The notes beneath the pieces were generated by a model. That model was not told the origin of the DNA. It ran no database searches and saw nothing but the letters and a program-made list of their open reading frames with translations. Shown here in pieces: positions 8,796 to 64,000 of a DNA stretch of 64,000 nt; positions within the stretch are counted from its first letter, which is position 1; every line of letters starts with the position of its first letter. This DNA is from Octopus vulgaris. Its lineage: Eukaryota. The position numbers and the translations under genes were made by a program. The stretch is from NCBI GenBank assembly GCA_951406725.2, contig OX597822.1, positions 11,036,001-11,100,000 on the forward strand. The letters are read 5' to 3'.

Positions 8796-10205
8796 ATTTG
8801 GCTCAAAAGCAAATAGCAAGGCCATGTAGGGGGACATGAAGTTAAGTACAGGGTGGTGTTCATGTAAAGAGTTCAGGCCACTTGAGGTCAAGGGAGGCTT
8901 TGAACAAAGCGGTCGTCGGCATCTTCACCATCTCGTCTGGCAGCTTGTTCCACGGATCCGCAACCCGGACGGAGAAAGCTCCTCTCCTTCGATTGAGATG
9001 AAATCGTCGCAGGTAAAGCTTTTCGGAATGACCCCGCAGCCGACGCTCTGGAGCAGGAGTGAAGAACAGCTCTTTCGAGAGGTTACACTTTCCGCTTATG
9101 ATGCTGTGGGCGAGAATGAGATCACCACGGCGGCGGCGTTTTTCTAGAGAATAAAGGTCGAGCGTCCTCAGCCTTTCTTCATAGGACAAATTTTTGAGAC
9201 CATGAACCATGCGGGTAGCCAGCTTCTGGACTCTTTCGAGATGCTGTATGTCTTTGAGGAGATAAGGAGAAGAGGCTTGAATCCCGTATTCCAATATGGG
9301 TCTCACCAGCGTGACATAGAGTGGTAGGAATATGGCTGCTGTGAGCATTCCGAATGACCGTCGAATCAAGAACAGAATTCCGCGTGCTTTGTTGGCAGCA
9401 TGGACGCACTGGGCCGAAGGCGAAAAGGAGGAATCCACCAAGATACCCAGGCCCTTTACCTGATCGGTCCTCTCCAGCAGCAGACGACCCGGCTCGAAAT
9501 CAAGTTGAGTTGCAGGAGGAGAGCCAACAGGCAGATGACAGCACTTTGACACGTTCAGACACGGGTCCCATTCGTTAGACCACTTCCAAATTTGGTGGAG
9601 GCATCGGTGAAGATCCTCTATATCACCGCGAGAAGCGACCAGTTTGATATCGTCGGCAAATAGAAGGGTGTGTTGCGTGAGGTCGTCGGGCAAGTCATTT
9701 ATGAAGACTAAGAACAATAAGGGCCCAAGCACTGAACCTTGAGGCACGCCACTGCTCGCACTGGAGAGGTCGGACCGCGAACCATTTACTTGGACTTGGA
9801 AGGAGCGATCTGAGAGGAAGGCACCAACCCATCATACAATATCCGGATGGAAACTATATGCTTGAAGCTTGACAAGTAATAGGCGGTGGTTTACCGAGTC
9901 AAAAGCTTTGGAAAAGTCCAATAAAACGATGTCAACAGCATCACTATCATCGAGGATGCTCGTCACCAATTCTTCCATTACCAGTAAGTTGGTCAAGCAT
10001 GATCTCTTCGGCACGAAGCCGTGTTGGGAATCAGAGATGGAGGCTGTGTTTTGGAGGTGGAGCATCATACTTTTCTTAAGGATGGTTTCGAACATCTTGC
10101 TGATTATTGATGTAAGGGAAACCGGTCGGTAGTTAAGCGGGTCTTCGCGGCTCCCTTTCTTGAAAATTGGGAAGATTATCGCTGTTCTCCAGTCCGCAGG
10201 TATAA
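8717..10205 (-). mobile_element. CR1-like LINE, 5'-truncated, with (TAAC)n tail
   Basis: RT motifs NYRPVSLTS, QHGF, DFSKAFDSV, GVPQGSVLGPLLF, FADD and CR1-type C-terminus LERVQKLAT..LSYEERLRTL..RRRRGDLI; short 3' UTR then (TAAC)n at 8717-8794. Confidence 0.93.
8860..10205 (-). pseudogene. Reverse transcriptase (ORF2 C-terminal half), one in-frame TGA at 9832-9834
   Basis: ORFs 9832-10205 and 8860-9747 are in the same frame and joined by IV*WVGAFLSDRSFQVQVNG. Confidence 0.9.
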
Positions 10206-10246
10206 CATAATAATGATGATGATGATGATGATGAAGATGATAATAA

Positions 10247-15605: not shown

Positions 15606-15747
15606 TGTATATTACCTATAAAATTGGCTCCAGAACTGTTTCTCTTCAAAACATTTAGGCCTTGAGTTATTATGCAAACTTTTTTTCTGCTGTTTAGTAT
15701 ATATGACTCTATGCATGTATGTATATGCATATAATTGCATGTATGTA

Positions 15748-16992
15748 CAGGGTGCATAAGGTATTTGAGGACATACATTTTTGGGGTTATTGCTGCAATT
15801 TTTGCTAACTCTGTATGTTCTTTGTTTCAGAAAATCATAATGGCAGACCCTCAGCTTACTCAAGAAATGAAAAGTCTTGCAGTTATTGTACTTATAAAGG
15901 CTGAGCATAGAGATTTAGAAATATCTCGATTTTTAAAAGTTGCCACATCTTTTGTCTACAAATTTTGTAAGGTGTTAGAGACTGAAGATGGAAATGTATC
16001 ACCAGTATCAAAGCATAAAAAGCATTCTAATCGCTCTGAAATCATCAAAACACCTGAATTTATCCAGCAGGTTCAACAGACCATTGATTCCAATCCCAGA
16101 ACATCAATGACATCAATTGCAAAAGATCTCCGTGTGTCAGAAGGAACAGTCAGAAATGTTGTCCAAGAAGACATCAGATGTGAATCTTATAGGGTGAGGA
16201 AAGGTCAATTTGTCAGAAAAAGCCAAAGAAAATCACTTCATCAGATCTAAAAGGCTCTTAAATAAACTGTAAAATCCAGCTGAGGAAGATTTGATTTGGT
16301 TTTTCTCAAACGAGAAAAACTTCGACCACGATCAAAACGTTAACAAAAGAAATGACAGATGGTTTTGTGCAGACCCTTCTGAAGTTCCATACAACATTTT
16401 CTGCAGCTGTCATGGTTTTAGGGTTTGTCAGCAATGAAGAACATGTGATGCCTCCTTTCCACAAGGTTGTAGAGTTAACTCTGCCACCTACATTGTGGTC
16501 CTAGAAATAATTGTTAAGCCCCGGATAGACAATGTATGCAATGGAAGGCCATATGTGTTTCGGTAAGACTTTGCTCAATCACACATGGCTCTAGTAACAC
16601 AGCAATGGATGGCTGAAAATTTTCATGATCACATAACCCCTAATATTTGGCCTCCTAATTCCCCAGATCTCAATCCATTGAACTATGACATGTGGATCGT
16701 TATTGAAAGAGAGATCAATGAACTTGCCCATAGCACCAAAACTTTTTTGAAAGCCGCGATAGTCAGAATAATATCCAAAATAAACCAGGACCACTTGATT
16801 CGAGCATGTAGATGTCTTAGATCTCACTGAAGCTGAATAAAGCTGAAGGTGGCTTTATTGAATAACATTATAGAAAAGAAGGTTTATTTTATTCACATAG
16901 CATTTTTTGATAAATATAGCTGTTACCTGTTATTTTATAAATCTCTTTTTTTTTATAAACATAAATGTTCCTCAAATATTTTACGAACTCTA
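15748..16992 (+). mobile_element. Tc1/mariner DD37D (maT-like) transposon, near full length, pseudogenised
   Basis: Degenerate TIRs CAGGGTGCATAAGGTATTTGAGGA / TCCTCAAATATTTTACGAACTCTA; HTH region MADPQLTQEMK..NPRTSMTSIAKDLRVSEGTVR, FFSNEKNF, WPPNSPDLNPLNY. Confidence 0.9.
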
Positions 16993-17012
16993 TATATAGT
17001 TATGTATATAGT

Positions 17013-17243
17013 AGGCGGCGAGCTGGCAGAAACGTTAGCGCGCCGGGCGAAATGCTTAGCAGAATTTCGTCTGTCGCTACGTTCTGAGTTCAAATTCCGC
17101 CGAGGTCGACTTTGCCTTTCATCCTTTCGGGGTCGATAAATAGAGTACCAGTTTCGCACTGGGGTCGATGCAATGGACTTAATCCCTTTGCGTATCTTTG
17201 TTTGTCCCCTCTGTTTAGCCCCTTGTGAGCAGTAAAGAAATAT
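17013..17243 (+). mobile_element. SINE family C, full length, Tx1-like tail
   Basis: 17-bp duplication TATATATAGTTATGTAT at 16991-17007 and 17243-17259. Confidence 0.92.
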
Positions 17244-17253
17244 ATATATAGTT

Positions 17254-17394
17254 ATGTATGTATGTATGTATGTATGTATGTATGTATGTATGTATGTATG
17301 TATGTATGTATGTATGTATGTATGTATGTATGTATGTATGTATGTATGTATGTATGTATGTATGTATGTATGTATGTATGTATGTATGTATGTA

Positions 17395-25372: not shown

Positions 25373-25908
25373 ACCTAATTTTTCTATTTCCGATAGGATT
25401 ATTTTACATAGACGTATTTGTTTACGAAACGCTGTAACATACATGCAGGCTCTGGATTGTATAAAGAAATTATGGAAGTAACCTTAAAAATTTTATTAAA
25501 ATATATCTGTTTTTTTTTCTAGATTAAAGATGTTTGACTAAATTACCAAATATTTTCTGAAATAGCTCTCGCACCCTCTATATATGTTGGGTTCTCCTGT
25601 CGATTTCCAGGTACGAGCTCCAGTTGTTCCATAAACTAACCAACCTAATCAAATAATTTAACGCATTCCACAATCATGTTACTCTTATTGTAATTCATAG
25701 GTAGAATTAGTGTGACAGTGTGTGACAAAGCTGAATCTTGTCACAAACGCTCGCTACTACGCACTTTCCAGTCACTCAGTTTCACTTACACGGCTTGGTT
25801 TGTCCGGGGACTTTTATAACGAGACTCATCCAAAATGCCTCCTATGGCTCTGATGCTAACTTATAAACTATTCAGCCATGTTCTATACATCATATGACAT
25901 ACTTTTAA

Positions 25909-26666
25909 GGCAACGAGCTGGCAGAAACGTTTGCACGCCGGGCGAAATACTTAGCGGTATTTCGTTTGCCGCTACGTTCTGAGTTTAAATTCCGTCGAGG
26001 TCGACTTTCATCCTTTCGGGGTCGATAAATTAAGTACCAGTTATGCACTGGGGTCGATATAATCGACTTAATCCGTTTGTCTGTCCTTGTTTGTCCTCTC
26101 TGTGTTTAGCCCCTTGTGGGTAGCAAAGAAATAGGTATTTCGTTTGCCGCTACGTTCTGAGTTTAAATTCCGTCGAGGTCGACTTTCATCCTTTCGGGGT
26201 CGATAAATTAAGTACCAGTTATGCATTGGGGTCGATATAATCGACTTAATCCGTTTGTCTGTCCTTGTTTGTCCTCTCTGTGTTTAGCCCCTTGTGGGTA
26301 GTAAAGAAATAGGTATTTCGTCTGCAGTTACGTTCTGAGTTCAAATTCCGCCGAGGTCGACTTTGTCTTTCATCCTTTCGGGGTCGATTAAATAAGTACC
26401 AGTTACGCACTGGGGTCGATATAATCGACTTAATCCGTTTGTCTGTCCTTGTTTGTCCTCTCTGTGTTTAGCCCCTTGTGGGTAGTAAAGAAATAGGTAT
26501 TTCGTCTGCAGTTACGTTCTGAGTTCAAATTCCGCCGAGGTCGACTTTGTCTTTCATCCTTTCGGGGTCGATAAATTGAGTACCAGTTGCGTACTGGGAT
26601 CGGTCTAATCGACTGACCTTCTCCCACCAAATGTCAGGCCTTATGCTTATTGTAGAAAGGATTATG
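25909..26666 (+). mobile_element. Tandem array of four SINE family C units
   Basis: Units start at GGTATTTCG 25956, 26134, 26312, 26496 (periods 178, 178, 184); outer ATACTTTT duplication. Confidence 0.95.
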
Positions 26667-27078
26667 TTATACTTTTGTGTGAGGGAGGTGCGTGTGTGTC
26701 TGTGTGTGCGTGCGTGCGTGTATACATGCAAGTGTCTATGTAGATGTAGGGATGAACATATGCATGTCAGTGCGTGTGTGTTCTTAGTTCTAGTTTTGTG
26801 TGTGACCCTCTTTATATAGCTCTTTATTATTGCTTCCATCTCTTTTTCTGTCTTTCAAACACGTCCTCTTACTCTCCTTTCACTTTATTCACTCTCTTTC
26901 TCTCTCTCCCTCTCTCTCCCTCTCTCTCTCTCACTTCCCCCCTCTGTGTATATCTATCTATCTATATATATATATATATATATATTATATTAATACATAT
27001 ATGTATACACACATACATACACATATATACATATGCAAAGCAAATACACATACATTCACACGCACACGCATACACATT

Positions 27079-31922: not shown

Positions 31923-32748
31923 AGAACAAAGGATTACTAGAACACAATTTTACTCTTACTTTCACCTTTACTTTTATGACATTCACTAATGATTATCTTC
32001 CCCCTTAGACCAGACAGATCTGCATCAATGTTGCTGCAAATTCAGAAATAAGATCCATAGCTTTAGTAGATTTAAAATTACTCAAACGGTTTTGTTGTAC
32101 GTTTGTGCGAAGTGAAGTAAAAAAAATGTATAGCAAAACTTACCTAGAAGTCCAAATAGTTTGTAGTTAAAGATAAAAAGATGGAAATATGTATAAAAAG
32201 ATGTTTATGTTGAAATTATTTTATTCCACTTCTCTTCCTATTTCAGGAATGTTGGTGCACAATGCACAAAGTTTGTGTATTTTGTTGGTTCATAGCAGTC
32301 TGATGTTACCCAAAAAGTCAAAGATTTCTACCCACCCCTGCAAGTATTACTACAATGAGAAGAAAATATAACTTATTAATGCATTTCCGTTTAAGAACAA
32401 AAGCTGTTACATCAGTTATTGATTTCAGATGGAATGGTCCTTTGCAAACCATCTCAATTATAGCGTGTGATGAAACAACTGTATGGGGGAACTACATTGG
32501 AGGGGAACATTTGGAAACAATTGGTTCTTCAAATAATCCCAACAAACGTGCAATTGATCATCATTTGTAAATCAGCGGATTTTTCTGCTATGTCGTTTAC
32601 AAATCTTGTTGACAAAATACAGGTTATGCTGTTTCCTTGTACTTCCGGATAAGTAGTCTTTTGTGCACAGCCCATATTTCCGGTGAAATATGACGACCAT
32701 ATACTACAGCTCTTGAAGGAAACTTCACCAATGTGGAGTACGAAATCT

Positions 32749-33127
32749 TATTACTTTACTGCTCATAAGCGGCTACACACAGAAGAGACAAACAAGGACA
32801 GACAAACAGATTAAGTCGATCATATCGACCCCAGTGCGCAACTGGTACTTATTTAATCGATCCCGAAAGGATAAAAGGCAAAGTCGACTTCGACAGAATT
32901 TGAATTCAGAACGTAGCGGCAGACGAAATACCTATTTCTTTACTACCCACAAGGGGTTAAACACAGAGAGGACAAACAAGGACAGACAAACGTATTAAGT
33001 CGATTATATCGACCCCGAAAGGATAAAAGGCAAAGTCGACCCCAGTGCGGAATTTGAACTCAGAACGTAGCGGCAAACGAAATACCGCTAAGCATTTCGC
33101 CCGGCATGCTAACGCTTCTGCCAGCTT
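32749..33127 (-). mobile_element. SINE family C dimer
   Basis: Internal junction tail|GGTATTTCG; GAAATCT duplicated at 32742-32748 and 33128-33134. Confidence 0.88.
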
Positions 33128-34980: not shown

Positions 34981-35029
34981 TGGTCAGCGTGCTAAGAATT
35001 TTGCCAGCTCGCCGCTTTAATGTTGTCCT

Positions 35030-35687
35030 ACAGTGCTTTATCTGTGCAGAATTTGTGGACAAAATGATGAAACCGTATGGCATATTATCAGTCAAAGTAC
35101 GTCACTATCCCAGAAAGAATATAAGAGTCGTCATGACAATTTAGCAAGGATTGTCCATTGGACACTTTGCAACAAGGATGGACTTGACAAAGCAAAAATG
35201 TGGTGCGAACATAAACCGGAAGGCATCATCGAAAATGATAATGCAAAGATTCTACGGGATTTTATGATTCAGTGCGACCATGAAATTGAGAATATGAAAC
35301 CAGACATTGAGAAAGAAAACAAACGATGCTGGATCATAGATATTGCATACCCAGCTGGCAACAAGATATGCGACAAGGAAGAAAGAAAAGTCGAGAGATA
35401 TGAAAGGTTAGCATGGGAGGTTAAGCAGCTTTGGTTGATGAAAAAGGTGGTAGTAGTACCATTAATTGTCGGAGCCCTGATAACAGCGAGTAAAAATCTT
35501 GAGAAGTACATCGAAGAAATAGGGACTGCAATAAAAGTGGAGCCCTTGCAGAAAAGAGCACTGCTTGAAACCGCTCGAATATTACGGATTGTGCTTGAAG
35601 AATAAGGGGTATTAACTTAGTTCACTGGTAGTGAACAGCTGACACCATAGTATATTTCCAGCGTTAGAAGCTATGCAAAGACAGTAA
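35030..35687 (+). mobile_element. Dong/R4-like retrotransposon 3' end (zinc knuckle plus restriction-like endonuclease), second family
   Basis: CRICGQNDETVWHIISQS, RHD, KPDI..IIDIAYP..KVERY..VPLIVGAL; 3' UTR then (AAT)n. Confidence 0.88.
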
Positions 35688-36299: not shown

Positions 36300-36693
36300 T
36301 GGTTTCAAATTTCGTCACAAGGGTAGTAATTTTGGGGAAGGGGTTAAGTCGATTACATCGACGCCAGTGTACATCTGGTACTTATTTTATCGACCCCGAA
36401 AGGATGAAAGCAAAGTCGACCTCGGAGGAATTTGAACTCAGAACGCCGTAGACGAAATACATATTTCTTTACTACCTCCAAGGGGCTAAACAGAGAGGGG
36501 ACAAACAAGGACTGACACACGGATTAAGTCGATTATATCGACCCCAGGGCGTAACTGGTACTTATTTAATCGACCCCGAAAGGATGAAAGGCGAAGTCGA
36601 CCTCGGCGGAATTTGAACTCAGAACGTAACGGCAGAGGAAATACCGCTAAGCATTTCGCCCGGCGTGCAAACGTTTCTGCCAGCTCACCACCT
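36300..36693 (-). mobile_element. SINE family C dimer (Tx1-like tail unit plus ATT-tail unit)
   Basis: Junction ...AAAGAAATA|TGTATTTCGTC on minus strand near 36455-36465. Confidence 0.88.
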
Positions 36694-45880: not shown

Positions 45881-46275
45881 ATATAGTTCAAATTTATAGA
45901 AAAACAAAAACGAAGACAGGTGTAGGAACAAGCAAGGGTATTGAAAACATAGAGGTCGACTTTGCCTTTCATCCTTTCGGGGTCGATTAAATAAGTACCA
46001 GTTACGCACTGGGGTCGATATAATCTACTTAATCCGTTTTTCTGTCCTTGTTTATCCCCTCTGTGTTTAGCCCCTTGTGGGTAGTAACGAAATAGGTATT
46101 GAAAACAACACGTATTTTTCATTCTCTATATATTTCTTCTTAATCCTTTCTCTCGAAGAGCGTAGGTTTGAAACGTTAAAGACTATCATTTTGCCCGAGT
46201 GTCAAACTAATACATTTTCTTGTTTATACCACACCAGTTTTCGTCTTTGTTTTTTCTATAAATTTCAACTATATA
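45881..46275. mobile_element. Inverted-repeat Penelope-like relic containing a truncated family C SINE (45952-46094)
   Basis: 45881-45942 is the reverse complement of about 46208-46275; SINE flanked by GGTATTGAAAACA duplication. Confidence 0.65.
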
Positions 46276-47402: not shown

Positions 47403-47851
47403 CATAACAAGTAAAACTCTGTTAAAAACATTACATGGTTTCAAAATGTTTCTTGGGGTTGAAGATAAATGTTAGATAAAGCGCAAATCATAGCATCAAA
47501 GATTTTGGTTACAAATCTCTTCTTGCTGAAGCTGCGAAGTCGTATACACTGCTTTCATGTCGAAGATCAAAGCTTGCTCGTAACAAACTCGACTCTCTAA
47601 GGAATTCAAGAGAAAAAAAACCTCCTTTAAATAGCTGATGTTGGGACGCTTGTCTAATCTGTCACGTTAAGGGGTGAACAGTCCGCGTAAAGTTAAATGG
47701 ACTTGACTCATGTGATGAACCTAAAAGTAAAAGGCAAAATGCGGATATCTAAAGGTAAAGAGAGATCGTGCTTCCGTTACAGTTTTAAGTTTCGACTCTT
47801 GGGGTATATTGGAACTGTTTGAGTATGATAAAAGAACTACAGTTATATATA

Positions 47852-47920
47852 TTTCTTTACTACCCACAAGGGGCTAAACACAGAGGGGACAAACTAGGAC
47901 AGACAAACGGATTAAGTCGG
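47852..47920 (-). mobile_element. Severely 5'-truncated family C SINE (tail only)
   Basis: Tail sequence with GTTATATATAT duplicated on both sides. Confidence 0.8.
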
Positions 47921-48176
47921 TTATATATATATAATAAGAATAAATCGATGTTTTAAGTATGATAACTTGACTATGTTAGATAGTAGAGCTATAACCTAAC
48001 ACCTGGATGTAAAGTAAATGGGAAATTATTTGTGATTCTCGTGTGATGTGTGGTATATTGTGCCCCCCCCTGTATTTGATAGGAAGAGATGGCAGACACT
48101 ATGTGTTGTGTATAGCCGTAGTGTGATAAATATCTATTGTTTTTCGGTCCCAGATACTTCCTTAAATGGACGCACG

Positions 48177-53879: not shown

Positions 53880-55910
<2,031 letters not shown>

Positions 55911-56372: not shown

Positions 56373-56765
<393 letters not shown>

Positions 56766-56781
56766 ATATATATATAAAACA

Positions 56782-63154: not shown

Positions 63155-64000
63155 TGTTTCTTTATTAGCCACACAGGGCTGCACACAGACGGGACAGATT
63201 ACAAAGTAGAGCTTTTCTTTTTGGGGGAGAGAAAAAAAAAATAAAGGTGGGGTAGGTTTTCGATCAAAAGGGATCGTAAAAGGGAAAGAAGAAAAAAAAA
63301 GAAAAGAAGCAAAAGAAGAAGAAAAAATGATCAATAAGGCTCGTGTATCACAGTGTCATGATGTAAGGTGTAAAGGGGGAAGCAGATAAGGTTTATCCGT
63401 GGGGAGAAAAGCCTACGGAAAAGACTACGGTAACCTCGGTCAATATTGTTACATGTTACCACATTTGTTTGCAAGTAGGTAACCCTCTCTTTTAAATTTC
63501 CGAGTTCATAGGATTATGCTCAAGGTGCCTTCGTCATTCATACGTGCCAGCCTTGCTACATTCACCCATCTTTTTTTAAAACATTCGCTAGACAAAACTT
63601 GCCTCTCTACTCTCACTTTCCTCTTCAAGTGATACTTGACCAGAGATGAAAGTGTTTGTCTCCAATCCTTTCAGACGCGTCCACCAGATACATTCTTTCG
63701 CCATAGCCACAAGGATGATGAAAATAGCTTTTCCTTCCCGTTTGAAGGAAGGAGGCGTGGCAATATTGACGATAGCCTCGGCTGATAAACCGACTCGTCC
63801 CACACGTGACAGCAATTGTTCGACATAAGCCCACAGGTCGGAAATTGTTGGACACTGCACGAGTGCGTGCAGAACGGTTTCGTCGCTCTGACCGCACCTC
63901 GGGCAGGTCGGCCCCGTGTTTCTCGAGCCGTGTCTGTAGAGCTTATCCCGAACGGGTAGCGCTTCTCGGTAGCACTGCCAGGCCAGGGATCTCTGGAAGT
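63153..64000 (-). mobile_element. Tx1/L1-like LINE 3' end (zf-RVT/CCHC region, 3' UTR), runs off window; abuts (GATA)n
   Basis: FQRSLAWQCYREALPVRDKL..CPRCGQSDETVLHALVQC (CX2CX8HX4C); frameshift near 63635; stop at 63506-63508; 3' end followed by (TATC)n. Confidence 0.88.

Follow-up and report, generated by a model that had tools for sequence, protein, structure and literature searches.

A tRNA-type SINE of Octopus vulgaris that likely inserts into itself at one internal base, and a LINE with a similar tail at the same site

A tRNA-type SINE in the genome of Octopus vulgaris likely borrows the enzymes of an L1/Tx1-like LINE with a similar tail, and likely inserts into its own copies at one internal base. 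The system is a variation on the target-specific LINE/SINE pairs of the Tx1 type, the closest of which is Tx1-Mar with SINEU. The usual relation between the partners would be reversed in that the passenger repeat is also the landing pad of the LINE, tens of thousands of times over.

The SINE array and the fixed junction

The window analyzed here, a 64,000-nucleotide stretch of contig OX597822.1, contains a tandem array at 25909..26660 on the plus strand. A single tRNA-like head (25909..25955), delimited by reading of the sequence and ending at the target base, contains an A-box-like motif. It is followed by four units of 178, 178, 184 and 171 bp that start at 25956, 26134, 26312 and 26496. Unit 1 (25956..26133) comprises a B-box-like motif, the body and an L1/Tx1-like tail and has a 6-bp deletion, and unit 2 (26134..26311) differs from it at two sites. 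Unit 3 (26312..26495) is a hybrid, with its first 77 bases identical to those of unit 4 and a divergent remainder made up of a Tx-type body and tail. Unit 4 (26496..26660) is likely the resident SINE and ends in another, GTAGAAA-type tail, of the same class as the tail of one L1/Tx1-like LINE copy (L116). All three junctions read AAAGAAATA|GGTATTTCG, and the other tail is confined to the last unit. Coordinates and sequence thus agree with the first-pass annotation of this DNA, which had described one head and four units with identical tail junctions and a differing last tail. The annotation had also called that last tail ATT-type. The tail does differ, but the ATT that follows it probably marks the beginning of an outer, now decayed duplication, whose probable left (25891..25906) and right (26661..26676) copies on the plus strand are alike at 12 of 16 positions.

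The string shared by units 1 and 2 has two matches genome-wide, both in this array, and judged from their sequence the two units appear to have arisen by local duplication. The string shared by units 3 and 4 has five matches, of which only two lie in the array. Of the variants previously regarded as private to each pair of units, those of the first pair are confined to this locus, whereas those of the second are not. The array likely began as a resident (unit 4) that received about two insertions, with a local duplication in addition.

Two dimers in the window, both on the minus strand, had been claimed to share the array junction. The dimer at 32749..33127 shares it exactly (32933|32932) and is entirely enclosed by a 7-bp duplication at 32742, and the dimer at 36300..36693 shares it with one mismatch (TGTATTTCG, at 36462|36461) and has a third tail type on its last unit. 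The target duplications claimed for solitary copies were recovered as well as that of the first dimer. A 5'-truncated copy on the plus strand (45937..46107) has a 13-bp duplication (46095) with the first letters GGTATT, and a full-length copy on the plus strand (16991..17259) has one of 17 bp (17243) with the first letters TATAT. A tail-only copy on the minus strand (47842..47926) has an 8-bp TATAT-type duplication past its tail end (47850), and a full-length plus-strand copy in a (TA)n run (56516..56779) has one of 15 bp past its tail end (56764). Sister LINEs with tails of a similar kind may be the source of the solitary sites of TATAT type. Fragments of other mobile elements, with RT-like frames and a transposase-like frame named by eye, are present at 8860-10230 and 53880-55720 on the minus strand and at 35021-35605 and 15735-16250 on the plus strand.

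The exact junction AAAGAAATA|GGTATTTCG has 25,324 matches in the 2.8-Gb genome and none in a reversed control, so the junction is not a product of chance. Exact SINE tails number 101,678. The SINE has a consensus of 231 bp and is short, non-coding, high-copy and interspersed, as is characteristic of tRNA-derived SINEs. A- and B-box-like motifs were recognized by eye on either side of the insertion site, as near matches only to the box consensus, and the SINE matched no tRNA, ribozyme or Rfam RNA family. Its central domain presumably resembles CORE.

Tail landing was scored in 63 random 10-kb regions, which yielded 54 SINE tails (56 before LINE ends were removed). Twenty of these were joined at consensus position 48 and represent 17 independent composites, 11 were joined at the second head base (AGAAAC), and 23 lay outside SINEs. 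Among 96 non-SINE ends, drawn from all regions sampled and extending beyond the random set, 39 have a clear duplication with a median length of 16 bp. The duplication begins directly past the tail, which means that the target pre-exists. Such duplications, together with the tail that alignments show to be common to the SINE and a LINE, are likewise characteristic of tRNA-derived SINEs.

A second fixed junction, tail|AGAAACGTTAG, lies inside the A-box-like motif and has 2,869 exact matches, mostly with the CAATAAAG tail variant; examples are L018:1992, L019:2670 and L020:1789. At L033:4795-4855, two SINEs on opposite strands face each other tail to tail, separated by a short stretch and each attached at the internal site. 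An RNA-templated GG past the tail was considered and rejected. Mismatches between left and right duplication copies are raised at positions 1-2 (5 and 6 of 39, versus 1-2 at positions 3-8), yet they do not tend towards GG.

A LINE at the same base

The LINE that targets the SINE encodes an ORF2 of 1134 aa with endonuclease, RT and zinc-finger domains (PF03372, PF00078 and PF13966) and an ORF1 with a zinc knuckle (PF00098). Its Pfam domains thus reproduce the Tx1-clade arrangement of APE, RT and a C-terminal zinc finger in ORF2 with a zinc knuckle in ORF1. Among 120 listed homologs, the closest named protein relative is from an argonaut, and one protein (37%) is named Transposon TX1 protein. 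Twenty-eight LINE copies were picked by protein similarity, namely the 20 best matches after the query and 8 lower ones. Of these, 25 are located at the SINE base (24 by pattern and one by eye), two are located elsewhere and one has no tail. For the youngest LINE form, 55 of the 68 exact tails genome-wide directly precede the site, 46 of them at C and 9 at G. Both counts reveal the target-specific insertion that is typical of the Tx1 clade. A junction search also returned LINE-type 3' ends at position 48 in 9 of 30 loci, eight of them with ORF2 matches. LINE and SINE tails both terminate in register at this base, with a duplication of about 16 bp.

The exact junctions of this LINE number 100, compared with 25,324 for the SINE. 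No LINE with the exact SINE tail was found among the first 100 of 1,019 matches, and similar tails occur in several other LINE families that have different targets. The partner is therefore inferred from the shared tail in combination with the shared site. Because the LINE is rare and its young copies are mostly found at C sites, most SINE junctions must trace back to older LINE subfamilies. Another element, with remnants resembling ORF1 but no match to ORF2, was found at the SINE site in its 3 closest copies, but not in 27 more distant ones. At L110:4218-6100 on the minus strand, such an element at the SINE site is interrupted by an inverted SINE trimer. Complementarity between tail and target was examined and not confirmed for this family: two older G-site LINE tails contain ATACCGC, whereas young C-site tails contain ATATCGA, which is not the complement.

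C-type heads are present in 12 of 44 solitary SINE copies, and SINE junctions reading C number 297, compared with 25,324 for the main junction. All seven full-length young LINEs reside in C-type heads, and in one case the same private change is present to either side of the LINE. The SINE bodies that follow young LINEs agree with the C subfamily at two positions (p 0.003 and 0.01). Older LINE forms are found at G sites. An immunity of the C-type subfamily to insertion, as the ratio of 297 to 25,324 might imply, was rejected since the youngest LINE lodges in C-type heads. A tentative reading, which we regard as possible but somewhat doubtful, is a target chase, to which drift would be the alternative. 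The LINE would land in the promoter of its passenger, the SINE would change its site (G to C at the nick and T to G five bases upstream), and the specificity of the youngest LINE would follow. Self-insertion would rebuild the promoter with the newest tail in front and turn old loci into templates. One LINE lineage with G-site and C-site subfamilies would also help in asking how APE specificity changes.

Origin of the composites, the single head and the growth of arrays

The earlier proposal that new copies insert into older SINEs at the internal base gains support from loci with two heads and from unit ages. The pattern of head, duplication and second head has 54 matches genome-wide; 30 loci were retrieved, of which 23 are distinct. 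In 16 of the 23, a full copy is nested in a resident with both copies of the duplication, and in L177 and L178 a private change is common to both duplication copies. In 44 composites that end in another tail, divergence is higher in the last unit than in the first (0.078 versus 0.045); the last unit has the higher value in 33 and the lower in 9 (p=0.0001). A composite set from a short-gap search, which favoured last units with deletions, was left out of this age test.

These results also bear on the question whether self-insertion is only occasional and most composites are reverse-transcribed dimeric or multimeric transcripts, produced by Pol III reading through the first tail. We consider this alternative rather unlikely, and it survives best of those weighed. 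It accommodates the absence of any run of four T from the SINE consensus and from the array, as well as first units that look entirely incoming-type. It also agrees with 37 same-tail composites, which have no age asymmetry (0.041 versus 0.046, p 0.32), a weak tendency for subtypes to pair (Mantel r 0.13, p 0.011) and outer duplications that look younger than those of solitary copies (0.75 versus 1.96 mismatches, p 0.03, on a noisy clock). The composites with other tails, however, have the age asymmetry described above and unpaired unit subtypes (Mantel r 0.04, p 0.32), and are in this respect not fixed Alu-like dimers; in the noisy test of outer duplications, theirs did not come out as older (p 0.72). 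The last units of composites have at least four types of tail and private deletions; the composites with the GTAGAAAAG tail at their end number 141 plus 1,420 exact matches. Unpaired subtypes, tail types and deletions together support the view that the composites lack a common dimeric master. Moreover, double-head insertions with both duplications exist, and the LINE itself uses the same base. A variant of the transcript explanation has many masters, each of which may have been born by self-insertion, and dimeric transcripts may add to the number of same-tail composites.

Another version of self-insertion, and the one closest to the first-pass annotation, assumes a weak GTATT/TATAT preference that the SINE fits by chance, insertion unit by unit and retention of the resident head. 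Solitary sites do have a target motif, D-R-T-A-T, with 3.8 bits, and three-unit composites are mostly as different within loci as between them. In addition, composites have the resident allele (T) at head position 19 at a somewhat raised frequency (16/66 versus 4/44, p 0.048). Scored over the random regions, however, the motif alone would place 0.2% of insertions at the SINE site, where 17 of 51 were seen. SINE sites constitute 48 of the 874 GGTAT words, yet they took 17 insertions compared with 4 at the other such words. The short preference is thus not a sufficient cause, and a short motif alone does not suffice for site choice. The LINE enzyme would read more of the SINE head than the five bases of D-R-T-A-T. 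The inheritance of the resident head, which had been proposed as the rule, did not hold either: resident-type alleles directly follow the junction in only 3 of 33 first units, and of 19 rare variants none is common to resident and incoming copy. Heads of the C-type subfamily precede G-reading junctions in 17 of 66 first units. The motif and head results and the apparent local duplication of units 1 and 2 largely refute this version, and we hold it to be improbable.

For self-insertion at a fixed internal base, the preferred reading, the allele patterns show that the head near the junction is mostly of the incoming type and suggest that its far end is sometimes the resident's. The single head would fit a crossover within the head, either during integration or later. 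Both heads are kept in 2 of 125 SINE composites. At LINE 5' ends, the resident head and the duplication are kept in 7 of the 8 that were sought; 11 further upstream stretches (1-2 kb), retrieved for the 5' ends of truncated LINEs, were still LINE-internal. Comparing LINE with SINE insertions at this one base offers an internal control on how homology contributes to 5'-end joining. One of the two heads would be removed through their homology, by pairing of the cDNA at integration or by later deletion between 65-bp direct repeats. Divergence does not differ between double-head insertions (0.036, n 15) and seamless ones (0.042, n 66; p 0.32). In R2, 5' ends are reportedly joined by homologous recombination. 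The octopus case resembles R2 in that an incoming 5' end homologous to the upstream target DNA results in a seamless junction, but the octopus LINE belongs to another clade and has another endonuclease.

Where arrays comprise at least three units, the identity of adjacent pairs is above the 99th percentile of between-locus identity in 39 of 78 cases, most of which belong to long arrays, and the same holds for 1 of 20 dimers. Middle units of long arrays are mostly 97-100% identical and often hybrid, with the start of the last unit and a Tx-type end. This near-identity, together with the string of units 1 and 2 that occurs only here, contradicts the building of arrays unit by unit through insertion. 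Local homogenization of units, the mark of SINE-derived satellites, is restricted to long arrays. After insertion, unequal exchange or slippage would expand long arrays. Shared variants in neighbouring units had been tentatively attributed to long target duplications or later unequal exchange. Long target duplication as a rule was rejected, with 0 of 19 rare variants shared, and for units 3 and 4 it is possible. DNA recombination or slippage between neighbouring SINEs without any targeted insertion, as in SINE-derived satellites, would explain the near-identical middle units and expansions of the head alone, but it is highly improbable overall and is refuted as the origin of the first junction, given that the junction coincides exactly with the end of the tail without explanatory homology, that target duplications flank nested copies, and that the same base also serves unrelated LINE and ORF1-only elements; it stands for later array growth only. 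The expansions of SINE head plus duplication alone occur in tandem with a period of 65-69 bp, at C5:87874181-87875491, C13:69036080-69036325 and C14:84691114-84691413.

Known systems and sister LINE families

In the published full texts searched, a body with few subscription papers and no repeat databases, neither a LINE that targets its own SINE nor such an octopus junction was found. The main text of PMC13282606 contains neither "nested" nor "target", and one supplement of PMC5804259 gave no match. Crocodilian Tx1-Mar LINEs with SINEU passengers have a common site in the abundant repeat Mariner-N4_AMi, according to the part of PMC4494074 consulted. The octopus pair resembles them in that LINE and SINE insert at one site, with a duplication of about 16 bp and sequential tandem SINE insertions. 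In the crocodilian system, the target is a third element and the duplication lies between tandem copies, whereas in the octopus the passenger SINE serves as the target and one of the heads is lost in nearly all cases. The targets listed in the same part of PMC4494074 for Tx1, Keno, Kibi and Koshi are a DNA transposon, U2 genes and microsatellites, with no SINE head among them; comparable target specificity is seen in octopus sister families located in (TATC)n, CAT and ATT repeats.

The arrays also resemble squamate SINE satellites and jerboa Dip multimers (PMC10702118) and the tandem SINEs of the clam S. broughtonii (PMC11481361), which likewise consist of tandem SINE parts that are homogenized when long. 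The parts of these two papers covered credit those arrays to unequal recombination, and describe neither a site-specific LINE nor a fixed tail-end junction. The octopus CORE-SINE OR1, as presented in the part of PMC4824008 consulted, is likewise a tRNA-type octopus SINE. The main text of PMC13282606 reports 900 recently active SINE families in an octopus annotation, and composites would inflate such counts.

The sister LINEs, with protein identities of 45-95% and different fixed targets, form a series for the gain and change of APE endonuclease specificity. At the end of the window, on the minus strand, the 3' end of an L1/Tx1-like LINE (63155..64000) has a related tail and lies in (TATC)n. 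It belongs to a separate family with an ORF2 56% identical to that of the SINE-targeting LINE, and was rejected as the partner because the retrieved copies end in (TATC)n. The best solved relative of a sister family is human L1 ORF2p. The window-end element is an internally deleted copy of a very young and abundant (TATC)n family, also present at L011:1-2700 on the minus strand, which has many intact 1149-aa frames, 25,222 first-look candidates and same-strand clusters. A further young family (L375-L384) encodes 1132 aa with 68% identity to the SINE-targeting LINE; 10 of 10 copies precede the same sequence, with CAACATGG at its start, and thus have a different fixed target. At L116:3399-4950 on the plus strand, a single LINE fragment (65% at the amino acid level) ends in the GTAGAAAAG tail of an older SINE subfamily, which suggests, on the sequence of this one copy, tail exchange among L1/Tx1-like families. 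Additional diverged families (L023, L134, L263 and L185) have related tails as well and end in CAT or ATT repeats.
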